Made by a program: the position numbers and the translations under genes
In this document: in pieces, positions 17,041 through 51,920 of the stretch
Position numbering within the stretch: the first letter of the stretch is position 1
Layout of the letters: every line of letters begins with the position of its first letter
Assembly (NCBI GenBank): GCA_977020255.1
Contig: CDROCS010000866.1
Location: 620,001 to 684,000 of the forward strand
Length of the DNA: 64,000 nt
From: Obrimoposthia wandeli
Taxonomy: Eukaryota
Direction: 5' to 3'
The notes under the pieces: model-generated
What the model saw: the letters and a program-made list of their open reading frames with translations, nothing else
Databases searched by the model: none
Told to the model about the DNA's origin: nothing

Positions 17041-17911
17041 CTTTATAGGCCAAATATAATGTATAAAAACCGTTTCTTCTATTAAAGGTCTACCCTACAA
17101 TAATCTCCTACGCTCTAAAAATCGAGAGAATTGAGAGAAAACGCCTATGTTGGTGGAAATAAGGATTATGTTATGGATGTTATTTGTAATACGAATTTGA
17201 TGAAAATGTTCTGTTGTTTTAATTAATGATAGATATAGTGGAGGCACTTAATAAATTCTTAAAATTTCGTAGAATATTGAATTTTATTGAATTCATCTAG
17301 GACAAAACAAATCATACAAAATAAATTTATATTAAAATATATTTTCCATAAATAAACAAATTTATTAACCTTAACTTTTTAAACTTTGGTTTTACATAAT
17401 ATGTCTATTTTGACACCACTAAAACCCAAATTAAAGTATTTTGAACAAATTATAAAAAAATTTAAAACATATTCTCAAAGTGCGTAACTTTTGGATGTAA
17501 ATATTGGTCTTTTTTTGGATAGATTAAATTGTAGTTTTTCACGTTTCACATCGTATTGACGTTTTGGCGTAAATAGGAAAAATTTCAATTTTGCCAAAAA
17601 TATCGTTTTTCTTTAATTTATTTTGCTTTTGAAAAATAAACGCTTTAGTTGTATGAGCTCCTATGTTAAAACAACAGTATAAATAGTCTAGTAAATAGAT
17701 TCATTCGATCATAACATGTAAAATCACAGTGATATAGGTTGTTTAAGCACTTTAAATCACGTTCCCATTTTAGAAAGGATTAGAAAATTGTTAAAAACTT
17801 TCAAAATTTCCCTATATTTTACTTTATATTTTAACTATATTATAGTATTTAAAATAAAAATAAAATGTTTTGAGCAATGAAAGGCACTGAATGGCACTGT
17901 CTGGCACTGAC

Positions 17912-18392
17912 TATCAGTGGGTATGTCATTCGGAGGCTCGCCTACCGTGGGGTGGGGCAAGCTGTTGATGCCCAGTTCAGGGGGCAGAGAAGCAGCACAG
18001 TCCAGGAAGCTGAGGTGCTGATGGTGCCCTCCAGTCATACCGCCACCTCCCCCAAAAGCATTGCCATGGGAAGACCCCAGGCCGGAAGTGGTGGGAACAT
18101 TGCTACCTACTCGGTCGCGGGAGCGCTGCCAGCGACGATACACCATCACACACACTCCCGTTATCAGGGCACAGCACAGACAAAATGTGCCCAGTACGAT
18201 ACCCACGATTACAAACGTAGCCCGGTCCGACAGGAATCCACTGGAACCGGACTGACTGATTCCCACCTCGCTCGGACCTCCGAACTCAGAGCTTGTCGTC
18301 CGGAAGTCACCGATTACGATGCTCAGCTTTTGAATAGTGTTCTGAACTGGGCTACCACAGTCGCTAGCTCGAATGTAGATATGCTCCACACC
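17912..18392 (-). CDS. Protocadherin-like gene, exon encoding end of last repeat, transmembrane helix and cytoplasmic tail
   Basis: GVEHIYIRASDCGSP...ATFVIVGIVLGTFCLCCALITGVCVMVYRRWQRSR: a hydrophobic helix followed by basic stop-transfer residues. Acceptor ttcttctcctggatccag is clear. The donor (A|gtcagt at 17911) is my best guess. Confidence 0.85.
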
Positions 18393-21300
18393 CTGGATCC
18401 AGGAGAAGAATAACAGTAAAATATCCAGTGATATGCATTGCATTATAAATTGACAACACACGCTATTATTGAAAATAATTAGTAAATGACTTTGGATTAA
18501 GTTATCAAATTAAAGTAATTTGACTATTCACTTAGACCATGCTCGCGACCTTCAAGAACGTCGTTTAGCTATTTCTGGGAATCATAATTTTAGACAGTTG
18601 CATGAACTATTTCTGGGAATCATAATTTTAGACAGTTGCATGAACTATTTCTCCTTTAAGAGAGTTACGACTGCCTGACTTTGACTTCGTTGATAAGTTT
18701 AAGCTGATAAAACAGAGTTGTAAATAAGCTAATCTTTTCTCATGCTGACAGTTCTAATACAATCTTACTGTAGAGTATATATAAGGAATTCCTTATGTAA
18801 GTGCAATAGATAATAATCTAAAATTATAGGAATGAAAATTTTAAAATGTAGGTGTGGATTAAGTGGATTTTCAGAAAATCTGTTATACAGTCTGTGATAC
18901 AAGCAGATTATGTAAAATAAATAAGTAATCGTAAATGCAGGAAACCGCTATTTACATAAAATTCGTTTGTTAACCTCTTGTATGAATGTTGTGTGTTTGT
19001 TTTCGAATGTCTTTATTACTATTATGTCACAGTTTTTCTAAATTATATAAATGACTAGTATTGTGATTGAATATATAGCTTTTATTAACCGTTTTGTCTT
19101 CTTTAACACAGTCAAAATGTTTGGAAAAGTATTATCCATTCCTGTATAATCTCATTAATTTATGAAGGGGGAAATAATTTATTTCCCATTTATTTAAAGT
19201 GTGATATGGATATCATCGTAAAACTATTCGAAAATGCAATGAGACAAAATGAAAATAATAATTGATAAACTGTATCAAGAAACATATATAACCAAAATTT
19301 TTCTCATATTCCAAACTAGTAACACTTTCTTTTTCTACAATTTGTGAAGATAATGAAATTAAAAATGAATATTTATTGTTTCCAAATATTAAATTAAAGT
19401 TTAAATAACTTTTTCTCTATATGAAGGCATGTTCAGAAGCCAAAGATTATTTGGTTATCATGAGGAAGAATAATGCTAATTTATGCTAAGTGGGTTTTTT
19501 AACTGATTTGGTGACAAAACTCAAAAGACTTTATAAAAAAATAGAAAATAAAAAAATGCTGTTAGAAATTATTTTTTCTTTATTATTTTATAAACAACAT
19601 GATTGATTGAGGCCAATTCGCCACCCAGGTCAATTTGTCATAGATAACATATACGAGCACTCAGACGTATAGAATATGATCCTACAGTGTAGTTGAAGTT
19701 GCATCGATATTATTATAAGTACAATATAAACATAAAACTACTTTTCATTTAAGATTTATGCTTACAAGGAATGAAGCAAAATATTTGAACTCATTAAATT
19801 TTACTGTAACATTTTCTTATTTCTATTTTTTCATAAACACTACTTTGGATAACAAATTTTGCTGGAAAATTAAGTGACTATATACCTTAATAAGAACAAT
19901 GTGTATCATATTCATGAAAAAATACCTAAAGCACTGAAAATTGTTTGAGATTTGCAGGGTCATTCTGTCATGATAATTTGTTTTTTGCTGATATAACATT
20001 CTAAAATTTAAATACAAAAATATAAAGACGTCATTAACGTTGAAATTCAGTGTATAAGTAATGCATTTTTTTAACATCGTTATTATTGTTATTATTACAT
20101 TTTAGTGCCATGTAGACACGAAAATAACAAAAATAATCTCAAATAGTATCCACAAAATCTGAAGTCAGTCTTAAAAGCGGTAGCCGGGGGCATGAAAATT
20201 TCACCGGTCACAAAGGACTACAACATTCCGTTTTATGCCTCTCCGATCACGTAAGAAAGATACTGTTTATTATGGTGAAGAAGTATATAATGATCAATAA
20301 TGCACACATAGCAGAGTATTTTTAATGATCAAGAAACAAAGTTAGCCAAATGTATTCTTATTCTATCTATAAAAGACTTCCCAACCACGATAAAACAATT
20401 GCGGAAATCTGCATATAACTACGTTGTCACTTTAACGAAAAATAAAGGAATTGACTCGTTTCCAGCTTCCTGGGAGAAGATTAAATGGCTGTCGAAGATG
20501 GGTGTCTCTTATTCTCGGTGGAAAAATAACCAATTGGCTTTAAGGAAACAAATAAGGTTCGCGCTTTCAATGAAGAAAGTATCAATTCCTATTTTACCAT
20601 CCTTACAGTTGATGAAGCTTTAAAAATCAAGAAGTCATGTAATTCTCAAACGAGCAAGCCAACTACATCGATGACAGTCGATGTATCATCTACCTCAGTC
20701 ATCAACGTCAAAGACCATTAGAATGCCTTCGTTCTTGCCATATGCTAAGAAACCTTTAGCTTAAAGGAGATTTTGTGCGAAGAGCTATGCTTGTTATTCT
20801 TGTAAAAAACATGAAAGGCAAAATTCATGCTGGATTTTTACAAGTGAATTATTTGCCATCAATGCTCTGAGTATATTATGAATGGAAATATGATTTTTAC
20901 TGATATTTTAATGTTTTGTATATTTTATGTAGACAAATGTATAAAACGGTATTAATATTTTATGGGAGGGATTGACCCCAAGCTTACAGTCAAACGTTAA
21001 GCGTTTGTGTACATTTACTATTTATCTGTTTCATAAAATTAATAAATTTTCTTGTTACAATCATTTTGGAGAATCTTTTGATATATAATTAGGTAAATAT
21101 TAATAAATTGCCACTGGTTTTTTTACAATATCATATTTATTCTTTTATTTAGAATTTTTTAAAATTAAATCCTATCCGCATTAATATAAATAAAATCTTA
21201 ACAAGAAAGAATCAATTTAAAAGTTCATATAAATCAATGATCGCAAACATTTTTTTAAGCCTTTACACAATTTTATTGTCCACTATAGTCCACCAAGTCA

Positions 21301-24702: not shown

Positions 24703-25437
24703 TATTGGGTACTTGAATAACCGATGTTTAGGGAAATGTATTATAAGATATAGAATATGCCTATATTTTTAGTTGATAACTATTTATACGATTGTCGTAT
24801 AAAGTTAGTTTTAAATGTATGATCAAGTGAATGTTTACATATTTAAAATGATTTACTTTCATTACATTTAAAGTGTCAAATTATGTTCCAACAAAACAAC
24901 AGCGGCGGGAAGTTTTATTTCAACATTTTAATTTGAGGAAAATTTGCCACAGTAATTCATCGTTTGCTATAACGAATTGCAAGGAATGAAATGAACAATT
25001 TAGAAATGATGATTTTGATGAGAAGACAAATAACGTTCTGAAGCATCGAAATACTTCGAAGATGAGGAATGAGAAACAGTACTTGACGGAAATCCATATC
25101 AAACACTGAAAGAGCTCTCAGAACCAATAAATGTTAATGAATCGACCATAAGAAAACGTTTGAAAGCTATGGGAATAATTCAAAAACAGCGAAATTAGCT
25201 ACCCAAAGAAATTGGCTAAAAACATTGACAGGTGTTAAATCGAATTGTTACTAGTGACTAAAAAATTAAATTTATTACGATAATCCAAAGAAACAAAAAT
25301 TATAAGTAAAATCAGGCCAACCTCAGAATCAATGTAAAAACCGAATCACCATGCAATAAGGGTATTTTGTTTATTAGATATGATCAGAAAGACATTTTGT
25401 ATTATGAGCAGCTAAAACCGTCCGAAACTACCACTGG
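24703..25437 (+). mobile_element. Mariner (Mos1-like) relic, 5' part, interrupted by the Maverick-like element
   Basis: TIR-like gggtacttgaataa; decayed transposase (NPYQTLKELSEPINVNESTIRKRLKAMGIIQKQ...YEQLKPSETTTG). Confidence 0.85.
25432..25437 (+). repeat. Left 6-bp target-site duplication CACTGG
   Basis: CACTGG immediately precedes the left TIR and recurs at 40860-40865. Confidence 0.95.
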
Positions 25438-25511
25438 AGTAGGGGGATGTGTGACTTCTGGAACAAAGACCGTGGGAAAATTTCAAGAGCGTGGGAACCC
25501 CCCCCCCGAGG
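25438..25511 (+). repeat. Left terminal inverted repeat
   Basis: AGTAGGGGGATGTGTGACTTCTGGAACAAAGACCGTGGGAAAATTTCAAGAGCGTGGGAA(C)10GAGG; reverse complement of 40786-40859 with one mismatch. Confidence 0.97.
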
Positions 25512-25530
25512 GATTTTTTTTTCCCACGGT

Positions 25531-25624
25531 GATGAGTCATCGAACAAAGACCATGAGTCATCGAACAAAGACCATGAGTCATCGATGAGTCATCGAACAA
25601 AGACCATGAGTCACCGATGAGTAA
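25531..25624 (+). repeat. Left subterminal array of GATGAGTCATC / GAACAAAGACC units
   Basis: TGAGTCA at 25533, 25554, 25575, 25586 and 25607; 21-bp and 11-bp units. Confidence 0.9.
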
Positions 25625-26829
25625 TGTCCTTTGTCATGCGACCGTGGGAACTTTCCCATGAGCGTGGGAACTTTCCCACGGTCTTGAGAATTTTCCCACG
25701 CTCAAGTCCTTTGTTCTAATAATTTTCTCAAGATCTACTATAGTAGACATGTACTTTGCAGCTCAACCATCGATGCTATTGACAAGCGGTCTTCACCAAA
25801 GGATACATAAGAGTTCGGACCTTCGACTAAGGTTGATCAGACCTTCGAGAGTTGGACCTTCAAGGGTCAAAAACCTTCAAAGGGTTCAAAATTTTTTATT
25901 TTTCTACTTTTTGATGTTATGGATAATAGACTTGGTCTGAGGTTGGTCCGACCTTCCAAGGACCTTCAAGGGTGGACCTTCAAGGGTCAAAAACCTTCAA
26001 AATTTTCAAATTTTTTATTTTTTCCAAAAAGTTAAAAATTTATTTTTTCAAAAATTTTTGTTTAAATTTTCAAAAATTTTGGCGCTAAAAATTAAAAGTT
26101 TCTAAATCACTTGTACATCATTTTTGCAAAATATTTTCTTCAAAACTTTATTACTTCAAAATCAATTACTTTTAAAACAAAGTAATAAAAAATTTACAAA
26201 ATTTATTTACCTAAATTAAGCTATGTAAATTCCATCTAATATGTTTTTTATTTGCTTACATCACGCATACATGTATGTGTGTGAATAATTAGACAGATGT
26301 TGACACGTGCAAACATAATTAAATGTATGTATGTATGTATATGTGAACATATTTGATTACTAGTAGATTAACAAATACATCAGATGACATCCCTTGCATG
26401 TATGTATATGTAACTACATCATATCAAAAATTTGTTTTAATGCATCAATTTCAATGCCCGAAAATTCAAATATATGTTTGCTATGGTTACAAGTATGTGT
26501 CATTTTTGCTACATCAAGATATATTTACTAAAATGTGGACATCACTTCATCTTATCTCTTCTCATCTAATGTTTTCTAAAGAAACTATGTAATCTTAGAT
26601 GTTAAACTGAAATTAAAAATAGATCAATATTCTACATGTTATTGATTATAGATATTAAATCTCGATTAATATATTGATATTTCTAATGTATACTGTAGTG
26701 TATTCTGATTGGTGGAAGATTGATTAAACAAGCAAACACATAGTAAACTTTGCTAAGAGAAATTGGAGTATAGTAATCCACTGGAATGTCTTCTGATTGT
26801 TGGTAGATTGCTTGAATAGTGAACTTAGA

Positions 26830-27660
26830 CTATATTAATATGTGTGTATGTATGAATACTTACAAAATTTTACAAGCTGACAGAACAAGAAAAAATAGAG
26901 ACTATTGGGTGTATGTATGCATGCATGTCTGAATACTTACAAGAAATACAAGGTATATACAGAACTCTAATTATTGTTATTAATCATTACATCTCTATCT
27001 TTTTCAATTCGAATCAATATTGTTTATCATAATAACAACTATATGTTCTATATTATGTTCTAAAAGTATTGATGTATTGAGGAAATTAATGATATGTTCA
27101 GGAAATTTACAATATTTTGATGATTCTAAAGACTAAATTAATGATATGTCCATGAAATCTATGATATTTAGGACGTTCTAAGGAAGAAATTATATGAGAT
27201 TTAGTAATATTGATTAGCATTGTTTGGAAGTTTTCAGTTGATTGAATAAATTTAGGGAACAGTATACATTGATAGAGTGTGTATAAGAAAATTGACTATA
27301 GTAATATTATATGTCTGTGTGTATGTGTGTGTGTATGAATACTTACAAAAATATATGACAAATATACCTAAGTAATATTGTATGTGTGTGTATGTGTGAA
27401 TACTTACAAAAATTTACAAGTTGAGAGAACAAGGAAAATAGAACATAGAGACCATTGGGTATGTGTGTGTGCATGTGTGTCTGAATACTTACAAGAAATA
27501 CAAGGTATATACTAAAATCTAATCATAAAACATTCCATCTCTATCTTTTTCAATTCCACATCGATATTGTTTATCATAATAACAACTATATGTTCTATAT
27601 TATGTTCTAAAAGTATTGATGTATTCAGGAAATTAATGATATGTTCAGAAAATTTACAAT
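26830..27660 (+). repeat. Internal direct duplication (about 26830-27110 versus 27390-27660)
   Basis: Shared tgaatacttacaag...ctctatctttttcaattc...ttatgttctaaaagtattgatgtatt...ggaaattaatgatatgttcag blocks. Confidence 0.8.
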
Positions 27661-27684
27661 ATTTAGATGCTTCTAGAAGAGAAC

Positions 27685-28265
27685 TCACGTGGAAGTTTAG
27701 TGGTTTAAGAAGGAAAATAACATCGACATTAGGGAAATCTCATGGAAGTTGAATGGTTTAACGAGGAAAATAACGTGGAAGTTAGGGAATTCTCATGGAA
27801 GTTGAGTGGTTTAAGGAGTAAAATAACGTTTGAAGTTAGGATAATCCCATGGTAGTTAGGAAAATCTAGTGGAACTTAGGGAAATATTGCAGTAGTTAGG
27901 GAATTCTCATGGAAGTTGAGTGGTTTAACGAGGAAAATAACGTGGAAGTTAGGGAATTCTCACGGAAGGTGAATGGTTTAATGAGGAAAATTACGTGGAA
28001 GTTACGGAAATATCATGGAAGTTGAGTGGTTTAAGGATGAAAATAACGTGGAAGTTAGGGAATTCTCATGGAAGTTGAGTGGTTTCAGGAGGAAAATAAC
28101 ATGGAAGTTAGGATAATCCCATGATAGTTGAGGAAATCTCATGGTAGTTAGGGAAATCTTCCAGTAGTTAGGGAATTCTCATGGAAGTTGAGAGGTTTAA
28201 GGAGGAAAATAACTTAGTAGTTACGATAATCTCATGGATGTTAGGAAAATTTCATGGATGTTAAG
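27685..28265 (+). repeat. Degenerate tandem array, about 53-bp composite unit
   Basis: Recurring TGGAAGTTAGGGAATTCTCATGGAAGTTGAGTGGTTTAAGGAGGAAAATAACG and its subunits. Confidence 0.9.
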
Positions 28266-29819
28266 AGGTTTAAGAGGAAAAAATATAAGGAAAGGGTTTA
28301 AGGAAAGAATAGCATAGAATCAGACCAATATCAAGCCTACCTCTTTCATTAAAGCAGTCATAGATGGATGTTTTTTAAATAACATTCATAATTTAACCTT
28401 ACTTATACATCAATGTTGATTGAAATATTCTACCTTGCAGTTGTTTAAAATATTCTACGTTGTAGTTGTTTAACTTTAAACATTTTGTTGTAAAAACTAA
28501 GATATTAAGACTTTTGAGTTAGATAATCAGGTTAGGCTAAAGGAAAACATTAGAAATTTTATAAGAATGAATCTAATAATCAATAAATCGAGACATATCT
28601 TCTAACATCTCTATCATGAATCTTCTTTCAAAAACTTTCATCCCTAACTTTCAGAGAAATTATCAAATACCATAAATTCATATATTTCCATACATATTGA
28701 TTATTGAAAAACTGAACTTATCAATATTATCAACATCTAATCTCACTATCATCAACCATCATAAAGTGGTTGATAATAGGAATAATGATTTTTCTAATGT
28801 GTCATTGAGATTTAGACTTTGAAATGGAATAATATAGTTAAATATAGAGAAGACTTAGATGTTTTGATTATCATACAAGCTCGCATACAAAGAATCTTAT
28901 ACCAAAATTATCGATAATACACATATTTCATCTATATCATAACACATGTTGTAAATCCTAATAAAACCTTAACAATAATTCATCATAACTATTTTATTGA
29001 TTAATCTATTCTATCAAGTATCTACTGATTATTGAATCTAGGGGCTATGTTTAATATTTCTAAAGATAGAATAGTTTCTCACCATTTTATTAAGATAGTA
29101 CTATTCATTACTAACGTTTCATAAATCATCTAATTCAATAAATATCAATATTCACATCAATATATCCTTAACTTTCGAACTTCTTATAAAATATTAATAA
29201 ATATAAAGGAGAAAATACGTACCTTTATTAGTTAATTCCATAGAGTCCAAACAGAAGTCACTAAGCCACAGGATGCAATCTTGTATATTCCATTGTAATT
29301 CGGTTGGGTAGACATTGATCCATTGATATTCCGGAAAATGACATCATAATATTGGATTTTTCTTCTTGAGTTTCCATGAATAATATGATGACGTTGCTAT
29401 AAATCAGCTTACATGTTTATTTAAATATATCTTTGTTTATATAAAACTGAGACTCAGATTAACCAATAAGAATAGATGATACAATGTTACTAAAAATAGA
29501 TTATTTTATAGGGTTAAGAAGAGGAAAATCTCATAGTGGTTAAGATGTTTATGGAGAGTTGCTGAACATATTTGCACATAATATATGTAAAGATGTCCAT
29601 CTTCTAATTGGTTGATGCAAGTATTGACTAAATATTGCAAGCTTCTAATTGGATAACAAGAACAAGTGAAGTTGGTACATGTGTACATGTCTATATTTAG
29701 ACATAAATACTATTATAATTATTAACGCGCGCGAATCATACCAAAAATTTTTAAAAATTATTTTTGAAAATGTGTCAAAAATATTTTTTAAAAAATATTT
29801 TTGAAAATGTGCCAAAAAT

Positions 29820-29956
29820 NNNNNNNNNNNNNNNNNNNNNNNNNNNNNNNNNNNNNNNNNNNNNNNNNNNNNNNNNNNNNNNNNNNNNNNNNNNNNNNNN
29901 NNNNNNNNNNNNNNNNNNNNNNNNNNNNNNNNNNNNNNNNNNNNNNNNNNNNNNNN
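29820..29956. other. Assembly gap (137 N) inside the element
   Basis: Run of N; true length unknown. Confidence 1.
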
Positions 29957-30233
29957 TGAATAGTAATTTATTAAATTTTATGCAATAAAGCAACATATTC
30001 CATTAAATTATTATTATTACTTAAATAATTGTCTTTGTTTCTATTCTTTAACAAAAACCTTCAAATGAGATGTAAACTTTAAAGTTTTATGAGTAGATTT
30101 AAATATTTGGAAATTTAAATAAATTTAAAAAGGAAATGGTTAAATAATTAATAGTTTAATTTAAGTTTAGTACTTATTTTAGTAAGTAGATCAAACGTTT
30201 TAAATGTCAAAATAAATTGAATAATAAATTCTA

Positions 30234-30310
30234 ATTGGATACGATTCTTATTGGAAGAAATATATTATTTTAGTATAAAAGAATAAAGCAATAAGAAATC
30301 AGTCTCAGTT
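30234..30310 (+). promoter_or_regulatory. Pol II promoter of pPolB (CCAAT boxes, TATA, Inr)
   Basis: ATTGG at 30234 and 30250, TATAAAA at 30274-30280, TCAGT at 30299 and TCAGTT at 30305 (25-31 nt after the TATA start), ATG at 30321. Confidence 0.65.
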
Positions 30311-30320
30311 ATAAACGAAA

Positions 30321-33300
30321 ATGGTAAGATTTTTGTTATTTTTAAATTATATTTAATTTTTCTTTTAGAATTGCAATATGAATAAGAAGTTATGTTTTGT
30401 GAAGAGTCACGTTGAGTGTGACGAGAAGATGAGGAGCTACTTCGCGCAGAAGTATAATGGCAAGCTGTTCTACGTCTGCCCAGTTTGCCTCTCGTCTGAG
30501 GAGATTGTTTGGGAGGAGTTTGTGGAGAAACATCGCCACCATCTTCGACATTTTCAACAGCGCGGAAAGAAATCTATCTTCCAATCGAGAAGTATTATGC
30601 CTACTCCCATGCCTGTTGCTGCAACCTCTGCGCCACATGGTCGAGCTCCTATACCTCGAAGTCAAGTATCTTCTCCCGCGCCTACTCCTGCTGTTAGCAC
30701 TATGCCTACAAATGCTGTGATCGCTCCCATGCCTGTTGCTGCAACCTCTGCGCCTCATGGTCGAGCTCCTAGTCAAGCCGCTTCTACCGCCCCTACTCCT
30801 GCTGCTCGTGTTAGTAGTATGCCTACGGTTGCTTCTCCGAATGTAGTGGCTCCGGTATTTGCTATTCCTGCCGCGACACGTGATCGAGTGCCTACTCCCA
30901 CATCTGCTTCTCCGATTGTAGTGGCTCCGGTATTTGCTATACCTACCGCTACTCGCGCTCGAGTGCCTTCTACGTCTGCTGCACCTGCGCCTCCACTATC
31001 TTCTCCAATAGCTTCAACATCTGCTGCTGCTGCTCCTGTCTCCACATCAAATGGAGTTGGTATGAGCCCCACTAGCGCGCCGATGGTAGCACCTACCCGC
31101 AAGAGAAGTGTTATGCCCACTTCAGGTAGCTCTGCTGCGAAGTTTACCAGGGTTGATCCCGTGAATCGCAAGACAGGCGTTCGCGGGACAATTGAAACAT
31201 TATCATTAGATGTTTCTAATGATAATATGAGTGAATTAGTTGTTCCTCATTCTTTATTAGCAGCTTTAGCTGATTCTATTGCTCGCTTTACTAGTTGCAA
31301 AATCCAATTCGGAGTGCGTGTTGAATTCACCAACGTAGGAGAGACACGCGCTTGGAATTTCTCCAATAGGGGGCTCCCAATGGATGACGGATTTTTGTCT
31401 GCTGGAGTCGATGCAATTAAGAAGAAGATCGAGAATTATTCTCAAAGCGGGAGTAATTGGACGGTCAATCGATTCCTGGAGATTTCGTTTGTTGTCACGA
31501 AAACAACAACGATTAATTATCTCCAGGGAAGTAGCTATATTCCCACTCCATCGGAATTAGCCTTATCACATTGTGTGATTAATGTACAAAACACAAACAC
31601 GTTTTGCTTTCTATATAGCATTTTAGCTATTATTTTTCGGGAGATATTTCGTTGCAATCCTCATCGAGTTAATCAGTATGAAGGGTTGTTACGTGAATTA
31701 ATTTTTGACGAGGATGAGATGCCGATGCGGCTCTGTAATATTGGACGTTTTGAAAGGAGGAACCCAACTCTTTCTATTAATGTTTTCAGCTTTAATAGGT
31801 TCGCAAATGTATCAACAGAGCGGGATATCTTTAAAAATCCCTATGTTGATATAATTTATAGGACGACAAACCCGAACGGAAGGGAAATCAATCTTCTCCT
31901 TTTAGAGATGAATGATAATTTTCATTACGTGGCTATTCCGAAACTCAATAGGCTACTAAATTACAGGAATAGAGGTGTTTCTAATCGCATTCAGTGTACT
32001 TGGTGCCATAAGTGTCTCCACGGGTTCCGGAGACCGATAAGTTACGCCAAGCACGTTCCACTCTGTAGGATGAATTTAGATCATTCTACACTTTATTCAA
32101 TGCCTACAGAGAAGCATATTGAGTTTACGGATTTTTCAAAAACCATTTCTCCGCCTTTTGCTGTTTACGCGGACTTTGAGGCTGTGCTACCGCCACATGG
32201 AATTTATCACCAGATTCAGCTCCCAATCTCGGCCGGTATGCTCATGTCTCCCGTTGCAGCCACCACTGGGTTTACATATGATTACTCAGTTTTCACTGGA
32301 GAAAATTGTGTAGTCTCTTTTTTGCAGAAGTTGGAGGAACTGGCAAAATTTGTTGTACTCCCATGGTATAAAAATCATGCGATTGAGGTTATGCGCCCAC
32401 TTACATCGGAGCAGAATTCAGGTTTCAATGCTGCAGTAATATGCTACCTGTGTAAGAAGAGGCTAGCTAACAAAGTTCGGGACCACGATCACATGACAGG
32501 AGACTATCTTGGAGCTGCGCATTCTAAATGCAACTTATCAAGGAGATTAAACCGCTCTTTTCCCGTTATTTTTCACAATTTGATGGGATACGATATGCAC
32601 CACATACTGAAGCACGCGTTGAATCGATTTCCGCACTGGAGTATCTCTGTCATACCTCAATCGACGGAGAAATTTCAGGCTATGATGGTGCATATTGAGG
32701 GAGTCTGTATCCGGTTTATAGATTCGTTGCAGTTTTTGTACAGCGGGCTCGAGAAACTTGTTGAGAACCTGGGTGTTACTCCATTGACACATTCCGTCTT
32801 CCCACAACATTTGGTGAGCGCAAAGGGGATTTTCCCATATGACATGGCCGTCTCAGAGACTATTACAACTTTACCACCAATTTGGAGCGACAAGATCAAG
32901 CCGGAACAGTATGAGATGGCGAAGAATGTATGGACGCAATGCGAATGCACATCTCTCTGGGACTATATGCTGGTGTACATGAAGATGGACGTCTACCTGC
33001 TGGCTGATGTCTTCACGGCATTCCGCATCAAGGCTATTGCTGACGACGGATTGGAACCACTCAATTTCTTCTCCATTCCTGGTTTGTAACAAAATATTTC
33101 AATATTAAGTAATCAATTTTAGTAAATTATTGTACAAAATAATTGAATCAGTAATTAATTTTAGTAATTTATTGAAAAGTAAATTGATTTTAGTAAATAT
33201 TTTTATGGAGTATAAATATTACTGATTTATCTTTATTTGTTTTCTCATCACAGGATTGACTTTCGCAAGCGCCTTCAAGTCGCTGCTCCGTCCGGAAACT

Positions 33301-34746
33301 GTCTTGGCTTCTACTACTACTACTACTGCATCCACCTCTGCTGCTGCTGCTTGTGTGATCTCTCCCGCGTCTCCTCCACCTGTGCGAGTCGAGCTCATCC
33401 AGGACCCGGAGATGTATCGTCTTTTTCGGTCTGGGATTCGAGGCGGGATGACCTTCGTGAACGAGCACAAGGTGGATGCCATCAACGGTACCGAACTTTT
33501 ATATATTGACGTGAATAACTTATACGGGTGGGCCATGTCCCAGTTTTTACCTTGTGGCAACTTTTCATGGGTTACTGACCGAATTGAGTTGGGGAATATT
33601 ATCAGTAGTCTTAAATCAGCGGATTTGTCCTGTAGTCGCTTCGCTCATTTATTGGAAATAGATTTATCCGTGCCTAATGAGCTACATAATAAATTTGACG
33701 ATCTCCCAATTGCTCCGATTAAACAGCGTCCACCTGGTTGTAAGACTGAAAAATTATTACTAACACATTACCCTAAGAAACATTATGTTGTCCATTCTAG
33801 ATTGCTACAAATGTACATTAGACTTGGTGCTAAGGTAGATTTTGTATATCGAGCAATACAGTTTGAACAAACTAATGTTTTTTCAAAATATATAGAAGAC
33901 AATTCAATAAAAAGAGCTGCAGCTACAACAGATTTCGAGAAGGATTATTATAAACTGAAGGTTAATTCTTTATTCGGAAAACTCATAGAGAATCTGATGA
34001 AGAGAATTAATCTTCGGATTTGTAATACTCCACAGAAGCTGGTTACCTATTGTAGTAAAGCCCAGTTTCGTAGGACTATTGAAATCGATACAGACCTTAT
34101 CGCAGTTCTACTGAATAAGGAAAATATTGTTTTGGATCGTCCTAGTTATATGGGCCAGGCAGTGTTAGATTTAAGTAAACTTCGTATGTATGAGCTGCAA
34201 TATATACAGTTGGAGAAATATCGAGTGCAATTTAACTGCGATATTAGAATTATAGCAGGTGACACTGATAGTTTTTTCTTAAAGTGTAATAATGTAAATG
34301 TGCAAGGATCACTGTTACCTGCTATGGTTGCTGATGGGCTGTTGGATACCTCGAAATTTCCAAAAACCCATCCGTTATATACAACGCTTAATACGGCGAT
34401 AGGTAAATTCAAAGATGAGAGCAAGGGATTATTTAGCTATAGGCAAGGAATATTTCTACGTCCGAAATCGTACAGTTTAGAGACTACTGAAGGTGAATCT
34501 CAGATGAGAGCTAAGGGTATTAGTCTCCAACAGACGAGTATTAGACACGCTAATTACTTGGCGGTGTATGAGAGTGGGGTTAGTGAGCGAGTACAACAAC
34601 AACGTATAAGCTCACTAAATCATCAACTGTTTACTGTAAGGTTAAGTAAAATTGCCTTAAGCAGTACTGATGATAAGAGGAAGTGGATAGCTAAAAATCG
34701 GTCAGTAGCCTATGGTCACTTTTTACACCCTGATGAAATTGTATAG
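30321..34746 (+). CDS. pPolB: Protein-primed family B DNA polymerase, spliced: join(30321-30323,30369-33081,33254-34746), about 1402 aa
   Basis: ExoI VYADFE, HNH/EndoVII-like CYLC...DHDHMTGDYLGAAHSKCN, ExoII IFHNLMGYD, ExoIII YMKMDVYLL, GIRGG, motif A YIDVNNLYGWAM, motif B KLKVNSLFGK, motif C AGDTDS, RPKSY. Splicing the two GT-AG introns gives 4209 nt with no internal stop. Confidence 0.93.
30324..30368 (+). other. 45-nt intron after an ATG-only first exon of pPolB
   Basis: ATG|gtaaga...ttttcttttag|AAT TGC AAT ATG is in frame with the 30378 ORF; strong donor and T-rich acceptor. Confidence 0.7.
33082..33253 (+). other. Spliceosomal intron in pPolB (172 nt, phase 1)
   Basis: CCT G|gtttgt...tttctcatcacag|GA TTG restores SIPG-LTFASAFK. 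The intron is very AT-rich, and the same position and phase is used in the second copy (39521-39866). Confidence 0.9.
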
Positions 34747-34815
34747 TCACTTTTTACATCCGAATGAAATTGTATAGTTTTATTGTGTTTTTATTCAATC
34801 TTTGTGATTTTAGGT

Positions 34816-34821
34816 AATAAA
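34816..34821 (+). terminator. Candidate polyadenylation signal of pPolB
   Basis: AATAAA 70 nt after the stop codon, followed by T-rich sequence. Weak evidence given the AT-rich background. Confidence 0.45.
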
Positions 34822-34964
34822 AATGTTAAAAATATTTGTCTTTGACTAGAATTATTTCGGATTTGACTAGGAATATTATAAATTATTAATTATTTTACTT
34901 CGTTTTTAAAAATGTTAATTTATTATTATTATTATGCTTATTAATAATAATTATGTTTTATTTA

Positions 34965-35590
34965 AATAGCAGCTGTCGCTTAATCTAAACATGACAGCTG
35001 CTGATAACATTACAAAATATTTAATGTAAATAGCAGCTGTCGCTAATCTAAACATGCGACAGCTGTTGATGACATTGCAAAATATTTAATGTAAATAAGT
35101 TATAATGTAAATAATAATTATATTTAGTTTAACGAAGAAGAACAGCTGTCGCTTAAGATAAATAAAGCACTTAACGTGCGACAGCTGTTGATGATGACAT
35201 CATGGAAACATGATTAATTATTTATATTTCCTTCGGGAAACACGAGCAAGCATCAGTGAGGTAATCACCATCTGTCACTTATCTCATCTAAACACATACA
35301 CACGTGACAGATGGTGATTACATCCTCAAGTAATTACACACGCATGCATGCATTATTGATTTAATCACCATCTGCCATTAATCTAAACATACGCATACGA
35401 GACAGATGGTGTCTACATCCTCGGGTAATCATGTACGCATGCATTATTGATGTAATCACCATCTGTCACTTATCTAATCTAAACACATACGCATGACAGA
35501 TGGTAACTACATCTTCGAGTGATAACACATGTATACATTAGTGATGTAATCATCAACATAATCTAAGCATACACATATTAGATGGTATTA
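34965..35590. repeat. Two tandem families of inverted-repeat (hairpin) units
   Basis: Three CAGCTGTCGC...GCGACAGCTG-type units (34970-35190), then 3-4 units of about 90 bp of the type GTAATCACCATCTGTCAC...GTGACAGATGGTGATTAC (35261-35590). Confidence 0.85.
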
Positions 35591-36806
35591 ATAATTTATT
35601 GCAATAATAATAATAATAATAATAATAATTTTATTTAAGTTTACTAATATTATTATTCATATTTCTCAAATATATATAAATTCACATACACTAATATTAT
35701 TTATTACCATCTTTATTAATCATACACACACATACTCCTTTGTTAAATAATTTGTAATATGTATTGCAACTTTTTGCAATATATTAACACCTTTGTTAAG
35801 TATAAAAGGATAAACACACACACACACACAGGATTTTTTCTTTATTACAAATAATTTCTTTATAATACTAACATTACGATAAAGATACTAGAACATACAT
35901 ACATAAAAAATTAACTTTGTTTCTTTATAAAATAAAAATCAATAAAAAATCAATAAATGTTACAAATAATGGTAAATATTTTAGTTACTTATAAAATAAA
36001 AGTAAATTATTTTAAAATAATTCTTTGTAATTATTTAACAATTTATAAATATAATCTTAAATAAACTACTTATAACAAAAATACCACCATATTACATTAT
36101 TTTAATTAAATGACTTTCAATAATCTTGTTATAATGAAAGGATCCTTTGTTGTACATGTTTAAATAATATAATTATGAAATTGATGTATTTAAACAAAAT
36201 GTCTTTATGATGTCTTTATGTTAATAATTTAAACTAGTACATGCATGAGTAATGTAACCAACATGCTAGATGGAATTTACATCATTATTGATGTAATAAA
36301 ACAAATTCTTTATATAATATAGTAAAATCACAAATACTCGTAACCATAACAAATATATATTTGTATTTGTGGGTATTGAAATTGATGCATTAAAACAAAT
36401 TCTTTTGGTAAAATTACTATACATGATCAGCTTTACACATGTAATTAGATAACTGTTAAAATACATAAGCTTTATTTATCAAATTATATAATACTTATTT
36501 TTATTAGTAGATAGTTTAATTGAATTTAGTTTAAATAAATTTAGAAATTATATAATACTTATTTTTATGAGTAGATAGTTTAATTGAATTTAGTTTAATT
36601 TTAGAATTTAGTTTAATTTTTATTAAATAGATAGCTTGCTTAGCTACTTTTAATAGTAAGTAGCTAAAGTTTTAATAAATAATTTTCTATGTGACGTTTA
36701 AAAACATATTTTGTAGAATTTTCCTTTCCCTCCCATCCCTTTCTTTTGTAGTCCTAATGAGGACTTTGGGTTCGTTCTCAAGTGTGTGTGTTTGTGATCA
36801 AGGGCC

Positions 36807-36992
36807 TCATCGCCAGTTTTCATTTGGTAAGATGAGTGGCTGGTCTTTTGATAACCAACAAATGAAGCCCGGGATCTCTTCTACTTCCAGAGCCTCCCGG
36901 AGCATCAAGCCCTCAGCGAGATAACACTTCTCTGCTAGAGTGTGCTCGCTCTCCATAAGCTCCTTTAACAAATTTTGTCGTTTTTCTTCCAT
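36807..36992 (-). CDS. Small protein A (61 aa), unknown function
   Basis: MEEKRQNLLKELMESEHTLAEKCYLAEGLMLREALEVEEIPGFICWLSKDQPLILPNENWR. GC-elevated island, upstream TATATAAG, and a homologous second copy at 38376-38543. Confidence 0.7.
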   Translation of the reverse strand: MEEKRQNLLKELMESEHTLAEKCYLAEGLMLREALEVEEIPGFICWLSKDQPLILPNENWR

Positions 36993-37934
36993 TAAAAATA
37001 ATGAATTGAAACTAAAATATTTCTCTTATATACTCTTCCTTGGTTAATTAATTTTATTGATGCAGTAAAACAAATTCTCTTTTAATTAATAATGGATAAT
37101 ATAATAAAATTTCGAATTAAATAAAATACATATGATATATAATAACTTAGATATATCCTAATTAAATTTTTATTATACATTTAATTAAATGACTTTTGTT
37201 TAAATAATATTATTATGAAGAAAGGATGCTTTGTTGCATATGTTTAAATAATCTAATTATGAAATTGATGTATTTAAACAAAATGTCTTTATGATGTCTT
37301 TATGATGAATAGTTTCTTTGTTACATAGAAATATTGGTACACACATGTACATATGTATATAAGCTTGAAGACACACACACGCACATAAGATGTATTTTGT
37401 TTAAATAATATAATTATGAAGAAAGGATGTTTTGTTGCATATGTTTAAATAATCTAATTATGAAATTGATGTATTTAAACAATATGTCTTTATGATGTCT
37501 TTATGATAAATAGTTTCTTTGTTACATAGAAATATCAGTACACAGGAGTTGAAAGAGTACACACATGTGCATATGTATATAAGTTAAGCTTGAAGACACA
37601 CACCTGATATGTCTTTTGGTGAAGACTGCATGTTAATACAAGCTTACATAGAAATAGTGGTACATACATGCATATATGTATATAAGTTAAGCTTGAAGAC
37701 ATACACACACACACGCAGGAGATGTGTTTTGGGTAAGACTGCATGTTAATACATGCTTTAGATAAAAATATATATAGTTTTAAATAAAGGCAGTACACAC
37801 ATGCACACATATACTATTTAAGCTTGACCACAGACACACACGCACACGATATGTCTTTTGGTGAATACTGCATGTTAATATAGCCTTTAGATAAACAGAT
37901 ATATAGTTTTAAAGAATGTTACTAAAAATAGAAT

Positions 37935-38000
37935 ATGAGTCATCGATGAGTCATAGGATGAGTCATCTATGAGTCATCGATGAGTCATCGATGAGTCATC
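37935..38000 (+). repeat. 11-bp tandem array of ATGAGTCATCG
   Basis: TGAGTCA at 37936, 37947, 37959, 37970, 37981 and 37992. Confidence 0.95.
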
Positions 38001-38375
38001 TTATGACCTCAGCATGACCTTAAATGACATTGTCCTCATGACGTCTGTCCTTAACTTGAACTTAAATGACATTGTCCTCACCGTGACCTTAAGTTGTCCT
38101 CATGACGTCATGACCTTAAGTTGACCTTAAAGTACATTGTCATCATCATCTAGAGAGAAATAATTCTTCTTTGTAATTATTTAACAATTTATAAATATAA
38201 CCTTAAATAAACTACTTATAACAAAAAGTAGCAAAAGTTTTTAAAAATATTTTAACATATTACATTATTTAAAGACTCTAACCTTAGTTAGAGTCTTTTT
38301 CCCCTTTCCCATTCCCTTGCTTATGAGGCCCTAATGAGGACCGGGGGGTTCGTGTGTGTGTGTGTAAGATGAAGC

Positions 38376-38543
38376 TTAGGCTTCTAGTATGATAGGATTC
38401 TCATCATACCAGAAGCAAATGAAGCCTGGTTGCTCCCAGACTTCAAGCGACTCTTGCTTAAGAAACGGCTTTATGAGCCGAGTCTTCTCCTCTAGGCTTT
38501 TCTCACTTGTCATAATAATTTCGATAATTCTTAAATCTTCCAT
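38376..38543 (-). CDS. Small protein B (55 aa), paralogue of protein A; not in the supplied ORF track
   Basis: Manual translation MEDLRIIEIIMTSEKSLEEKTRLIKPFLKQESLEVWEQPGFICFWYDENPIILEA*. 23 of 55 residues identical to protein A by hand alignment; upstream TATAAAAG. Confidence 0.7.
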   Translation of the reverse strand: MEDLRIIEIIMTSEKSLEEKTRLIKPFLKQESLEVWEQPGFICFWYDENPIILEA

Positions 38544-38769
38544 TTTAAAAATTGTGACAAGAAATGAAAAATATTTCTTCTTTTATATGCTCCCTCCTAT
38601 CTTCTAGTATAATTAATTTATTGATGTAGTAAAACAAAAATCAATTTTTTATTTATAATTCATTATATAAAATTATATCGAATTAAATAAAATGCATATG
38701 ATTATTTTATTTATTGAAATTAAATAATATTCATATGATATATAATAACATTAACAAATAAATGTTGTA

Positions 38770-38805
38770 TTAAGTCCATCGCCTTAACCACTCGGCCATT
38801 CTAGC
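38770..38805 (-). tRNA. 5' half of tRNA-Leu(UAA), fragment only
   Basis: GCTAGAATGGCCGAGTGGTTAAGGCGATGGACTTAA: acceptor 5' strand, D-arm with A-box TGGCCGAGTGG, anticodon 5' stem, CT and TAA, then similarity stops. No 3' half or T-arm nearby. Confidence 0.7.
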
Positions 38806-38988
38806 TCTTTGTTCAACATTATTAAACTAGTTTTTAATAAAAATAATTTAGTAAAATATATGTTACTTATAAATAAAAGTATTATCAATTAAAGAAAATA
38901 AGTTTTGAAGAAAATAAATTTTTGAAGAAAATAAATTTTTGAAGAAAAATTTTCAGAGGCAAAAATTTTCATGTACAAAAAAAAAAAT

Positions 38989-40191
38989 TTCGTCATTTTT
39001 CACAATCTTATGGGTTATGACATGCACCATATATTGAAGCACGCACTATGCAAGTTTCCCGACTGGAATGTATCTGTTATACCTCAATCAACAGAGAAAT
39101 TCCAGGCTATGATGGTGTATATTGGAGGAGTCTGTATACGTTTCATCGATTCCCTTCAATTTTTGAACAGCAGCTTAGAAAAACTTGTGGAAAACCTAGG
39201 TGTGACTCCTCTTACACATTCGGTCTTCCCGCAACATCTGGTGAGCGCCAAGGGAATCTTCCCATACGATATGGCAGTATCAGAGACTGCTCTTCGCGCA
39301 ATCACCAGCTTACCACCAAAGTGGGATGAAAAGATCAAGCCAGCACAATATGAGATGGCGAAGATGATCTGGACTCAGAGCGGCTGCTCATCGCTCTAGG
39401 ACTATATGCTGGTCTATATGAAGATGGACGTCTACCTTCTAGCAGACGTGTTTACAGCATTCCGGACCAAGGCCATTGTTGACGATGGATTGGAGCCACT
39501 CAATTTCTTCTCCATCCCTGGTTTGTATTTTACTAATTTTTCTAATTTTAGACACTAACACATATATATATACATGTATAAGAATAAATGTAGTACTTGT
39601 TACTATTGATTGCATAAAGATGCAGGTTTTTGCAATAAAGATGCAGCACGTCTTTGTAAGTATTGATGATTGTCTTTGTTAGACACACACGTGACTGTCT
39701 TTGTTAGATACTCACACACATATATACATGTATAAGAATAAATGTTACGATTGATTACATAAAGATGCAAGTATTTGCAATATAGATGCGTGACTGTCTT
39801 TGTTAGATAGATGATTTTCAAAGTAATGATTTTCACAATGATTTTAATAAATGTTTTTATTTCCAGGACTGACTTTCGCGAGTGCTTTCAAATCCCTGCT
39901 TCGTCCGGCTTCTTCTTCTGCTCCCGTTGTGCGAGTCGAGCTAATACAGGATCCTGAAATGTACCGACTCTTCCGGTCTGGGATTCGCGGGGGTATGACA
40001 TTTGTTAATGAACACCGCGTTGACGCCATCAATGGTACAGAACTTTTGTACATTAATGTAAATAATTTGTACGGGTGGGCTATGTCCCAGTTTTTACCTT
40101 GTGGTAACTTTTCCTGGGTGACTGATCGGTTAGAGTTGGGGAATATTATTTCCAGCTTAAAATCAGTAGATTTATCCTGTAGTCGCTTCGC
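38989..40191 (+). pseudogene. pPolB: Truncated second pPolB (sister lineage), ExoII to palm start, with intron 39521-39866
   Basis: VIFHNLMGYD...CSSL*DYML...NFFSIPG|LTFASAFK...YINVNNLYGWAM...CSRF. Nonsense change TGG>TAG at 39397-39399; truncated at both ends. Confidence 0.9.
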
Positions 40192-40439
40192 AGGTTTTTG
40201 CAATATAGATGCAGTACGTGACTGTCTTTGTTAGATAGATATAGATTTAAAGTATGTTACTAAAAATAGAATCTTTTTGACTTCACCGTGACCTTAAGTT
40301 GACCTTAAAGTACATTGTCCTCGTCATGACCTTAACTTGACCTTAACTTGCCCTGACCTCATGACCTACATCTTGTCCTCATCGTGACCTCAAGTTGTCC
40401 TCATGACTTTAAATAAAAAATCATGTGTACTCGGGAGAA

Positions 40440-40785
40440 ATTTGACCTACATCTGTCATAAAAAATTTGAATTCAAAAATTTTCGCGCAAATTTCAAAAA
40501 TTTTGACCTATATTATAAATTTTTTGCGCAAATTTCAAACATTTTCAAAAATTTTCGCGCAAATTTCAAAAATTTTGACCTATATTATAAATTTTTGGCG
40601 CAAATTTCAAAAATTTTCAAAATTTTCAAAAAATTTCGGGCAAATTTCAAAAATTTTCAAAAAATTTCGCGCAAATTTTAAAAAATTTGACCTATATTAT
40701 AAATTTTTTGCGCAAATTTCAAAAAATTTGACCTACATTTCAAATTTTTCGCGCAAATTTCAAAAATTTTGACCTAGATTTTTGT
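40440..40785 (+). repeat. Right subterminal A/T-tract array with TTTCGCGC and TGACCTA motifs
   Basis: Recurring aaaaattttcgcgcaaatttcaaaaattttgacctatattataaa units ending at the right TIR. Confidence 0.9.
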
Positions 40786-40859
40786 CCTCAGGGGGGGGGT
40801 TCCCACGCTCTTGAAATTTTCCCACGGTCTTTGTTCCAGAAGTCACACATCCCCCTACT
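40786..40859 (-). repeat. Right terminal inverted repeat
   Basis: CCTCA(G)9TTCCCACGCTCTTGAAATTTTCCCACGGTCTTTGTTCCAGAAGTCACACATCCCCCTACT; mirrors the left TIR. Confidence 0.97.
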
Positions 40860-40865
40860 CACTGG
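40860..40865 (+). repeat. Right 6-bp target-site duplication CACTGG
   Basis: Immediately follows the right TIR; identical to 25432-25437. Confidence 0.95.
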
Positions 40866-50515: not shown

Positions 50516-50960
50516 ATGAAACTCGTAAATATAAATTATAAAGGAAGAATAGAATACGATATTTCGCACTTACCATTCAATGATTGAAGCCGAAACAATA
50601 TGTTAAAAAGTTTGATGATTTCACAGTGGTTATTTTATTTTCATATTGAATTCTTTTAGGAAGTTGTCGTGTTATGGGATGCAAAACGCCGTTGAATGAG
50701 ATCAATTTACCATTTGGAGTACAATCAATCACAGTTTCAGTTAATCTTGGGAAACCAATAAATATTTATAAAATAGCAGAGAAAATGAAAAAAGAATGCA
50801 TGTTTGAACCTTGAATTTTTCCTGCTTTCAGATATTTGAAGTTGTGTAAAGATATTATGTTTAGGGTATGTTTAAAGATATTTTCTAGTGGTAAAGGTAT
50901 GAAATTGGGATTGAGAAAATTGGATTATCAATATACTGTTGAATCGATTTTAGAGAATAT
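50516..50960 (+). pseudogene. TBP-like (TATA-binding protein fold) gene relic
   Basis: ...GSCRVMGCK...ITVSVNLGKPINIYKIA...CMFEP*IFPAFRY...KIFSSGKGMKLGLRK resembles the TBP repeat (VxSxDLxxxIxLxxLA...YEPExFPGLIY...IFxSGKxxxTGAK); stops and a frameshift present. Confidence 0.6.
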
Positions 50961-50984
50961 ATTTTATTACATTTTACTTAGTAT

Positions 50985-51200
50985 CATTTAAAAATCCGAG
51001 AGATCAAACAGTTGTAGATTTCATGGCCAGACAAGCATTTCCTCTAAATAAGAACTTTCTAGTTGATTCATTCCATGATGCTGCTAAACAAGCAAATGGG
51101 TATATATTTATTGACTTTACATAAGCTTACCCAGATGATTTACGTGTTTTAACAGATATATTTAATTCTAAGGGAGTAACTGTTTATAAACAAACAGAGA
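50985..51200 (+). pseudogene. Maverick/Polinton packaging ATPase C-terminal relic
   Basis: FKNPRDQTVVDFMARQAFPLNKNFLVDSFHDAAKQANGYIFIDFT*AYPDDLRVLTDIF matches the Polinton ATPase pattern FKNPRD...LARQxYP...YGYLxID...RLRTxIF. Confidence 0.75.
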
Positions 51201-51559
51201 ACAATTATAAAAAAATTAATTTGCAATGCCTTTTAGAAGTTTATTGTAAAACGTAAACGTAAAGTAAAGGCTAAGCCTAAGGCATAAAAAAGAATCAGTA
51301 AGAAAAAGAAAGTTAATAAATTAATCGAGTATGTATTTAGAAGTAAAAGAAAACTTAAATAGCTTCAAATATAAACAATATTAAACTTGCACTTTTTTTG
51401 AAATGAAGAAAGTACAAAGAAGCATACCCATTTTAAAGCTTTGATCAAACCTTCTTATCATAAGAGAATGAGTATTCTTAAAGCATTTCCATATTTTTTT
51501 TGTAGATGATTTATTTGAAGTTTTTTTATAATATAGTTTTGGGAGAATTAAGTTTATCC

Positions 51560-51920
51560 AGCCAAGAATCAAGTGCCACCCTCGATTTGTTATTATACAT
51601 ATAATGATTCAGATTATTTAAGTTCAAATTACCAAAAAATCTGCCTTGTAGTATTTCTCCATTGCTTTATTATTTTCCCCTAAAACTTTAGTTTTGATGG
51701 ATAGTAACGCCAAAAACGACATGCATCGTCGCAGTTAAAAACATTTTTTGGATAATATTGTTTTAACCTTTTTTCATAATCCCGGGAAAGATCCTCAATA
51801 GCTAGTTCAGAAACAGTTACTTCTTTTTCACATACGTTATTGATTTTCATATTATTATGATCAAAAAATATGTTAGCCAACCATCAGAATCGTTTAAATT
51901 TTCTATTGAGATTTGAGTTC
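51560..51920 (-). pseudogene. pogo/Tigger transposase relic
   Basis: SDGWLTYF and YYPKNVFNCDDACRFWRYYP (YxxxxIFNxDETGLFWR-like). Confidence 0.6.

Follow-up and report, generated by a model that had tools for sequence, protein, structure and literature searches.

A Polinton/Maverick-derived element in Obrimoposthia wandeli with a protein-primed polymerase gene predicted to be spliced

We analyzed a 64,000-nucleotide stretch of DNA from Obrimoposthia wandeli (GenBank assembly GCA_977020255.1, contig CDROCS010000866.1, forward-strand positions 620,001 to 684,000; hereafter the window, numbered from its first letter) and found in it a Polinton/Maverick-derived element that carries a gene for a viral-type, protein-primed DNA polymerase of family B (pPolB). 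We regard it as probable that this is a reduced, non-autonomous Polinton/Maverick whose pPolB gene contains two spliceosomal introns gained within its lineage and removed constitutively, and whose integrase is supplied in trans. A preliminary description of the locus had dealt with the polymerase gene without its enclosing element and so had missed that the gene belongs to a Polinton derivative bounded by terminal inverted repeats (TIRs) and a target-site duplication (TSD).

The element and its polymerase gene

The following features delimit the element:

25432-25437, unstranded: left TSD, 6 bp, hexamer identical at 40860-40865
25438-25511, + strand: left TIR, 74 bp, first bases AGT, 73/74 bases matching the right repeat
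25438-40859, unstranded: entire Polinton/Maverick-derived element of 15,422 bp (137-N gap included), recognized by its TIRs, TSD and the interrupted mariner frame
29820-29956, unstranded: gap in the assembly (137 N) within the element, seen in the sequence
40786-40859, - strand: right TIR, last bases ACT, pairing with the left repeat
40860-40865, unstranded: right TSD, 6 bp, exact copy of the left hexamer

A mariner transposase frame (Pfam Transposase_1, E-value 0.0055, below the cut-off) reaches the left TSD and picks up again at the right TSD. The mariner relic that is split in this way (24767-25437 and from 40860) has a related copy at 546-1030. Polinton ends are described as AG..CT with an (AGT)2 motif (PMC8097293), and the termini of the element, AGT..ACT, agree with this motif at 5/6 bases. 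They form the only pair of Polinton termini in the window.

Apart from pPolB, core genes were not found in the element, of which the 137-N gap is unread. Among 70 frames of at least 38 aa, Pfam gave no rve integrase and no packaging ATPase or maturation protease, and tblastn with 120 open reading frames (ORFs) from six of ten related loci, including the rve proteins of L006 and L007 and the L003 ATPase, returned nothing inside the element at E 0.01. As there was no verified tblastn query for the maturation protease, it was searched for by Pfam only. The element has no other ATG frame longer than 142 aa, a count made with no verified capsid query. The L003 ATPase query did detect a relic outside the element, at 50969-51211. 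Because Polinton ends and a TSD are present while core genes were not found, we file the element as a non-autonomous Polinton/Maverick derivative with a spliced polymerase, and not as an autonomous Polinton.

The pPolB gene is laid out as follows, all features on the + strand:

30274-30309: candidate RNA polymerase II core promoter, with TATA at 30274-30280 and TCAGT at 30299-30303 and 30305-30309, seen in the sequence
30321-30323: coding part of exon 1, ATG alone (upstream ATG-GTRAG; four homologues start alike)
30324-30368: intron 1 (45 nt, phase 0), with donor GTAAG, a pyrimidine tract and acceptor TAG
30369-33081: exon 2, N-terminal domains through exonuclease
30372-30560: Cys/His module, exon 2
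30564-31142: low-complexity linker, exon 2
31164-31508: terminal-protein-like domain with a little-finger fold, exon 2
about 31536-31958: putative vOTU protease, from invariant Cys/His and position, exon 2
32151-33080: 3'-5' exonuclease, matching phi29, exon 2
32442-32534: HNH-type module inserted in the exonuclease, exon 2
33082-33253: intron 2 (172 nt, phase 1), with donor GTTTGT, acceptor CAG and, at 33222, a CTGAT motif resembling a branch point
33254-34746: exon 3, encoding the polymerase domain (motifs A, B, C and KxY)
34816-34821: first AATAAA after the stop, candidate poly(A) signal, seen in the sequence

We take the two TCAGT copies to be initiator motifs, presumably of a promoter. 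Joined, the three exons give 4209 nt, that is, 1402 codons and one terminal stop. Both introns have GT..AG ends and a pyrimidine tract, and the frame is restored once they are removed, as in U2-type introns. Their GC content is 11% (intron 1) and 17% (intron 2), against 45% and 40% in the exons flanking intron 2. Rfam returned no group I or group II self-splicing intron at gathering score, and none of its six weak matches in the element belongs to an intron family.

Structure models and profile searches agreed on the class of the enzyme. PF03175 matched both halves of the protein above its cut-off of 25.8 bits (34.9 and 54.4 bits), and PF02945 matched in exon 2 below its cut-off. For both models, phi29 polymerase was the top structural match: the exon-2 model (mean predicted local distance difference test, pLDDT, 73; residues 66-258 disordered) aligned to phi29 residues 5-191 (Z-score 15.1, root-mean-square deviation (rmsd) 2.8, 172 residues aligned) and the exon-3 model (pLDDT 91) to residues 205-575 (Z 24.8, rmsd 3.5, 340 aligned), which places intron 2 at the boundary between exonuclease and polymerase. 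Foldseek with the exon-2 model found nothing in the PDB at E <=0.001, whereas the wider structural aligner did match. The viral-type polymerase of the preliminary description is thus borne out as a protein-primed one with two spliceosomal-type introns. The best viral structure matches were bidnavirus-type and adintovirus PolBs, and the protein fits a pPolB of the Alpha / group-2 class (OTU-PF03175) as defined in PMC8502044. Searches of phage and plasmid collections and of solved-structure sequences gave no relatives.

Within the modeled N-terminal region, residues 273-380 resemble the Pol IV little finger (Z 8.7, rmsd 2.4, 91 aligned), and S362, invariant in 30/30 rows, lies between a helix (342-359) and a strand (365-378). 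A little-finger fold with a Ser or Tyr near a Gly before the last strand is what has been given as the mark of PRD1-like terminal-protein domains (10.1101/2024.03.18.585575), and the predicted domain agrees with this. The same source proposes that a vOTU protease located just after this domain releases the terminal protein. At the expected place, C413 and H519 are invariant (30/30 rows), which suggests a putative vOTU protease able to do so; no OTU structure was among the matches listed for the whole exon-2 model, in which the domain was not folded alone. An HNH-type Cys/His motif is present in 204/230 homologous exonuclease stretches, and Atlas gave no usable lead for the N-terminal Cys/His module. 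All catalytic motifs are intact, and the polymerase motifs of exon 3 are preceded by a 30-residue Ala/Thr/Ser-rich insert. This insert is the cause of a -30 alignment offset, for which a misplaced acceptor was ruled out.

The 45-nt intron directly after the start codon, as described previously, was recovered, and we consider it likely to be real. It contains two in-frame stops, the open frame of exon 2 begins precisely at its acceptor, and its removal restores a conserved Cys upstream of the internal ATG at 30378. In a local alignment that excluded start methionines, this Cys aligned with the first Cys of homologues P0005, P0007, P0012 and P0027, all of which start with a Met 3-4 residues ahead of it. 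A search by donor pattern alone performed at chance level (5 matches versus 5.1 expected).

Intron 2 in two polymerase lineages

Homology fixes the position of intron 2 and argues that it is real. Among 120 homologue matches, 113 align as far as the junction; the next residue is Gly in 110 of these, and 112 continue in homologous sequence with no gap at the start of exon 3. The intron, 31 residues past the ExoIII aspartate motif at 32976, divides the Gly codon of a motif that the homologues carry uninterrupted, in agreement with the phase-1 intron after ExoIII given in the preliminary description. The element also holds a second, related polymerase sequence on the + strand:

38991-about 40193, + strand: sister pPolB fragment, broken, running from mid-exonuclease to palm and carrying an in-frame stop at 39397-39399
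39521-39866, + strand: sister intron, 346 nt, GT..AG, internal duplication, position and phase as intron 2

The sister fragment is cut at both ends and carries a substitution in polymerase motif A. It shares the residue of the main copy in 150/171 aligned codons before the intron and in 99/105 after it. As had been noticed earlier, its intron occupies the identical position, at the same base and in the same phase, and the two introns have identical first 7 bases, including the non-consensus donor. The sister intron is longer through an internal duplication of about 128 nt. The earlier statement that the introns are otherwise unrelated is nearly right, except for a best local match of 20/22 nt near the 3' end, which was reached in 8/300 shuffles. 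At 40190-40272, the last exon of the sister breaks off into a repeat of part of the sister intron and of 37901-37934, a pattern suggestive of a template switch at the truncation.

Upon comparing the two copies, we found silent sites to be nearly saturated, with proportions of synonymous differences (pS) of 0.65 and 0.69 and synonymous divergences (dS) of 1.5 before the intron and 1.9 after it. The ratio of nonsynonymous to synonymous divergence (dN/dS) was 0.052 over the 171 codons before the intron (upper bootstrap limit 0.088) and 0.027 over the 105 codons after it (upper limit 0.064), the lower limit of 0 being an artefact of saturated replicates. Low dN/dS on both sides of the intron at near-saturated dS indicates that a spliced, full-length enzyme would have been under selection. 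The simplest reading is a single gain of intron 2, followed by a long need for the spliced enzyme in both subfamilies. That intron 2 is older than the divergence of the two copies, as previously proposed, accords with the common base, phase and first 7 nt at such dS values.

The previous term "ancestral" holds for the two subfamilies of the window and does not extend beyond them. A quick tree built on the exonuclease region (70 rows, drawing on 69 of 230 qualifying homologues, with the sister copy omitted) places the window protein within a 34-row clade with a Shimodaira-Hasegawa-like approximate likelihood-ratio support (SH-aLRT) of 99. A survey of related pPolBs had been called for in the preliminary description; the other 33/33 proteins of the clade are continuous across the junction, and 10/10 related DNA loci hold both halves in one uninterrupted frame. 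Because of these uninterrupted relatives, we consider it most likely that intron 2 is ancestral to the two window subfamilies and was gained in their lineage. The opening bases of the intron, translated in frame, give Gly-Leu, just as the spliced junction does; this hints, at the level of speculation, at a gain by target duplication.

Alternative explanations and the preferred reading

Several observations weigh against our reading and should be considered with it. Splicing of both introns is predicted from the DNA itself, and the vOTU assignment from motifs and position. A start just ahead of the conserved Cys is seen in no more than 4/369 proteins, the annotated start is a later Met in seven further homologues that carry this Cys/His module, and an unspliced frame from 30378 loses only four residues. 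Concerning the age of intron 2, the tree sampled a part of the homologues, identity to the ten DNA loci is lower (25-43%) than to the nearest relatives (40-55%), for which protein sequences alone are available, some of them possibly derived from transcripts. The 137-N gap could conceal core genes or a mis-join. As regards current activity, one intact polymerase copy is visible in the window.

The alternative that intron 2 is genuine while intron 1 is unused, with translation starting at 30378, gains from the fact that this ATG opens the same frame, that internal Met codons are the annotated starts of many homologues and that any ATG-GT arose in 1345/5000 dinucleotide shuffles of the 409 nt upstream. 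The stronger pattern of ATG followed by a GTRAG donor arose, however, in just 48/5000 of these shuffles; moreover, the frame opens exactly at the acceptor, the conserved first Cys would be lost, and the upstream ATG, if unspliced, would head an 11-codon frame. We therefore hold a start at 30378 to be unlikely. That intron 2 might instead be deeply ancestral in the polymerase class and lost in most lineages could be read from two distant proteins, P0114 and P0210, which leave homology directly after the Gly. These belong to 23 short-tailed proteins (P0169, another of them, ends at the Pro), whereas 210 of the 233 proteins that reach the junction, among 259, continue for at least 45 residues, and all ten DNA loci are without interruption. 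P0114 (source name Mytilus edulis) is sister to the uninterrupted P0110, with branch lengths of 0.049 and 0.005, and for this reason probably represents either a broken copy or a faulty gene model. Deep ancestry is, in our view, highly improbable. Even less can be said for the idea that both inserts are parasitic sequences, introners or small transposons, in dead copies and not functional introns. Introners do occur in integrated dinoflagellate polinton-like elements, mostly after integration (10.1101/2025.03.18.643946), but intron 2 keeps an identical base and phase in both divergent copies and has flanks under selection, which speaks against such an origin here. In addition, the rest of the window matches intron 2 at best over a short AT-rich stretch (E 0.002), and no Rfam family reaches gathering score; we consider the idea extremely unlikely.

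Regulated retention of intron 2, giving a polymerase-less protein as an extra primer or nuclease, had been proposed in the preliminary description. The unspliced main frame does stop at 33087-33089, two codons into the intron, exactly as stated there. The proposal draws further on the position of the intron at the domain boundary, by which a short retained product would consist of whole domains, on the non-consensus donor, which the copies have kept in common across 7 nt even though their silent sites are saturated, and on adenovirus, whose terminal protein and polymerase are made from mRNAs spliced separately out of a single unit (PMC11304566). Yet the early stop is not conserved, since read-through of the sister ends after 12 codons, and it is expected from AT-richness, as base composition by itself yields a stop within two codons with a probability of about 0.19. 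Truncations among homologues are not enriched at the site, where 3/23 short-tailed proteins end within 4 residues, and a retained RNA would run 1,727 nt from the stop to the first AATAAA. A long distance from stop to poly(A) site makes an RNA a likely target of decay. The invariant Cys413 and His519 would also suit the protease proposed to free the terminal protein (10.1101/2024.03.18.585575), which would serve that end by another route. The domain-boundary position stands, then, in favor of a switch and the variable, composition-expected stop against it, and we find regulated retention unlikely. The same doubt applies to a broader proposal taken as a whole, namely a polymerase-only Polinton satellite family that replicates itself, borrows its integrase and uses tissue-specific retention to yield surplus terminal protein or nuclease, with the weak conserved donor as a splicing gate and the primer/polymerase arrangement of adenoviruses reached independently. 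Finally, introns, a host-like promoter, loss of viral genes and purifying selection are typical of domestication, and their presence here could point to a domesticated host gene that gained its introns after fixation. Against this, the near-identical TIRs and the exact TSD denote a recent single insertion into the mariner relic, and the intron, being common to the subfamily at dS above 1.5, would predate that insertion. Domestication is accordingly very unlikely.

Under the preferred reading of a reduced, constitutively spliced Polinton, host RNA polymerase II would transcribe the pPolB gene, and both introns would be removed constitutively to give one 1402-residue protein, the anatomy of which is shown by homology and fold. 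By analogy with known pPolBs, this fused protein would prime and copy the linear element from its inverted ends. As no integrase was found inside the element, an autonomous Polinton at another genomic site may supply the one that inserts it in trans, with a 6-bp duplication. The family would have gained its two introns while in the nucleus of an animal host and would have inherited them because the element copies DNA to DNA; intron 2 would stem from a single gain, at a time when the nearest database relatives had already branched off but the two subfamilies had not yet parted. Unspliced RNA would most likely be waste. Overall, the anatomy, the selection and the insertion marks are shown by the analysis, and transcription, splicing, proteolysis and integration in trans are what we infer from them.

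Known systems, surroundings and significance

Published ranges for Polintons/Mavericks are a length of 13-25 kb, TIRs of 100-1500 bp and a TSD of 5-8 bp (10.1101/2023.08.22.554363). The window element agrees with them in its pPolB, TIRs, 6-bp TSD, AG..CT ends and length, and differs in its 74-bp TIRs, below the quoted range, and in having no integrase, ATPase, protease or capsid gene that we could find (gap unread). It differs as well in the two introns of its polymerase gene, as core genes are described as intronless: intact vertebrate Mavericks have intronless ORFs (PMC8097293), and for a nematode Maverick the core genes are called intronless, introns being confined to its cargo genes (10.1101/2022.07.12.499685). 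With the polymerases of Alpha-class adintoviruses and Polinton group 2 and with bidnavirus-type PolBs, the protein shares PF03175 and the order of terminal-protein-like fold, Cys/His pair, exonuclease and polymerase. In contrast to these, its gene lies in three exons without virion genes, and the protein adds the N-terminal Cys/His module, the long linker and the 30-residue insert after the junction; its nearest database relatives are just 40-60% identical. The HNH-type module in the exonuclease recalls the pPolB2 of nematode and oomycete Polintons, to which HNH has been described as confined (10.1101/2023.08.22.554363); its presence in most of the homologous stretches surveyed here suggests a wider spread of the motif.

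In adenoviruses, no more than the first few residues are encoded by the common leader. The likeness to the adenovirus E2B unit, which shares 5' exons (PMC11304566), lies in a protein-primed polymerase that depends on host splicing. Unlike in E2B, terminal protein and polymerase are here fused in one frame with an apparently intact putative protease, the element integrates, and a second intron interrupts the enzyme itself. Group I introns are present in cryptophyte elements (PMC12220804), and dinoflagellate polinton-like proviruses resemble the window element in having spliceosomal-type introns inside (10.1101/2025.03.18.643946); their introners are mostly young and post-integration, whereas the intron described here is old, conserved in position and flanked by purifying selection. 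The literature covered, to which the founding papers of 2006-2007, Repbase and supplements do not belong, held no account of conserved spliceosomal introns in an animal Polinton polymerase.

Beyond the polymerase, the element contains two small paralogous ORFs:

36807-36992, - strand: small ORF, 61 aa, 42% identical to the 38376-38543 ORF, pair E 1e-11
38376-38543, - strand: paralogous small ORF, 55 aa, within the sister-subfamily segment, pairwise similarity to the 36807-36992 ORF

Their upstream 150 nt are 74% identical, that is, more conserved than the introns. The 36807-36992 ORF matched no Pfam or PHROG family, and for its paralog, likewise without an assigned family, the best Atlas score of 0.80 was uninformative. 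To the right of about 38150, the element seems to consist of a piece of the sister subfamily, as the small ORF, non-coding blocks and subterminal repeats recur there. Repeat arrays lie at 27678-28263, 34970-35580, 37180-38150 and 40260-40770, and some repeats are common to the left and right arms in inverted orientation, for example, 26426-26506 with 36324-36404. In the window, no tRNA gene was called and no Rfam family reached gathering score. By eye, about 38773-38808 (- strand), just before the sister fragment, resembles the 5' half of a tRNA-Leu(UAA) gene, for which ARAGORN and Rfam made no call.

Outside the element, 17835-18509, 60873-61190 and 63559-63912 (- strand) are probable exons of a protocadherin-like host gene, with Pfam matches below cut-off; should they form one gene, the element would lie antisense in its intron. 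The putative membrane exon of this gene, used as a query, brought up no relative. A separate, AT-rich decayed Polinton relic at 50650-51600 (+) contains a TBP-like frame (Pfam E 0.0041, below cut-off) and, after it, the C-terminal half of a packaging ATPase, which matches the L003 ATPase at E 5e-10. Further observations are a near-perfect palindrome of 168 nt (6690-6857, 96% self-complementary), a tandem duplication of about 510 nt (56545-57560, 97.7% identical) and a broken transposase-like relic with a Spin-doc zinc finger (58100-59054, +, Pfam E 2.7e-08). Loci L001-L010 are Polinton-type polymerases on contigs of prokaryote-labelled genome bins, some with integrase or ATPase genes, and these contigs are probably mis-binned eukaryotic elements.

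These results bear on how Polintons are surveyed and how they live in their hosts. One survey required at least 5 Polinton proteins from ORF prediction (10.1101/2023.08.22.554363), and as ORF-based surveys assume intronless core genes, an intron-bearing element may be missed or scored as decayed. A splicing switch, if true, would be the more striking finding, but the evidence does not favor it. With intact ends and a polymerase as its core gene, the element is a candidate satellite that would copy itself and borrow an integrase. A polymerase gene of known intron-free ancestry would be useful for studying intron gain, and its introns would tie expression to the host spliceosome, which fits a long nuclear, transposon-like life. 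Overall, our reading implies that a Polinton lineage can acquire introns in its replicative enzyme and yet stay mobile.

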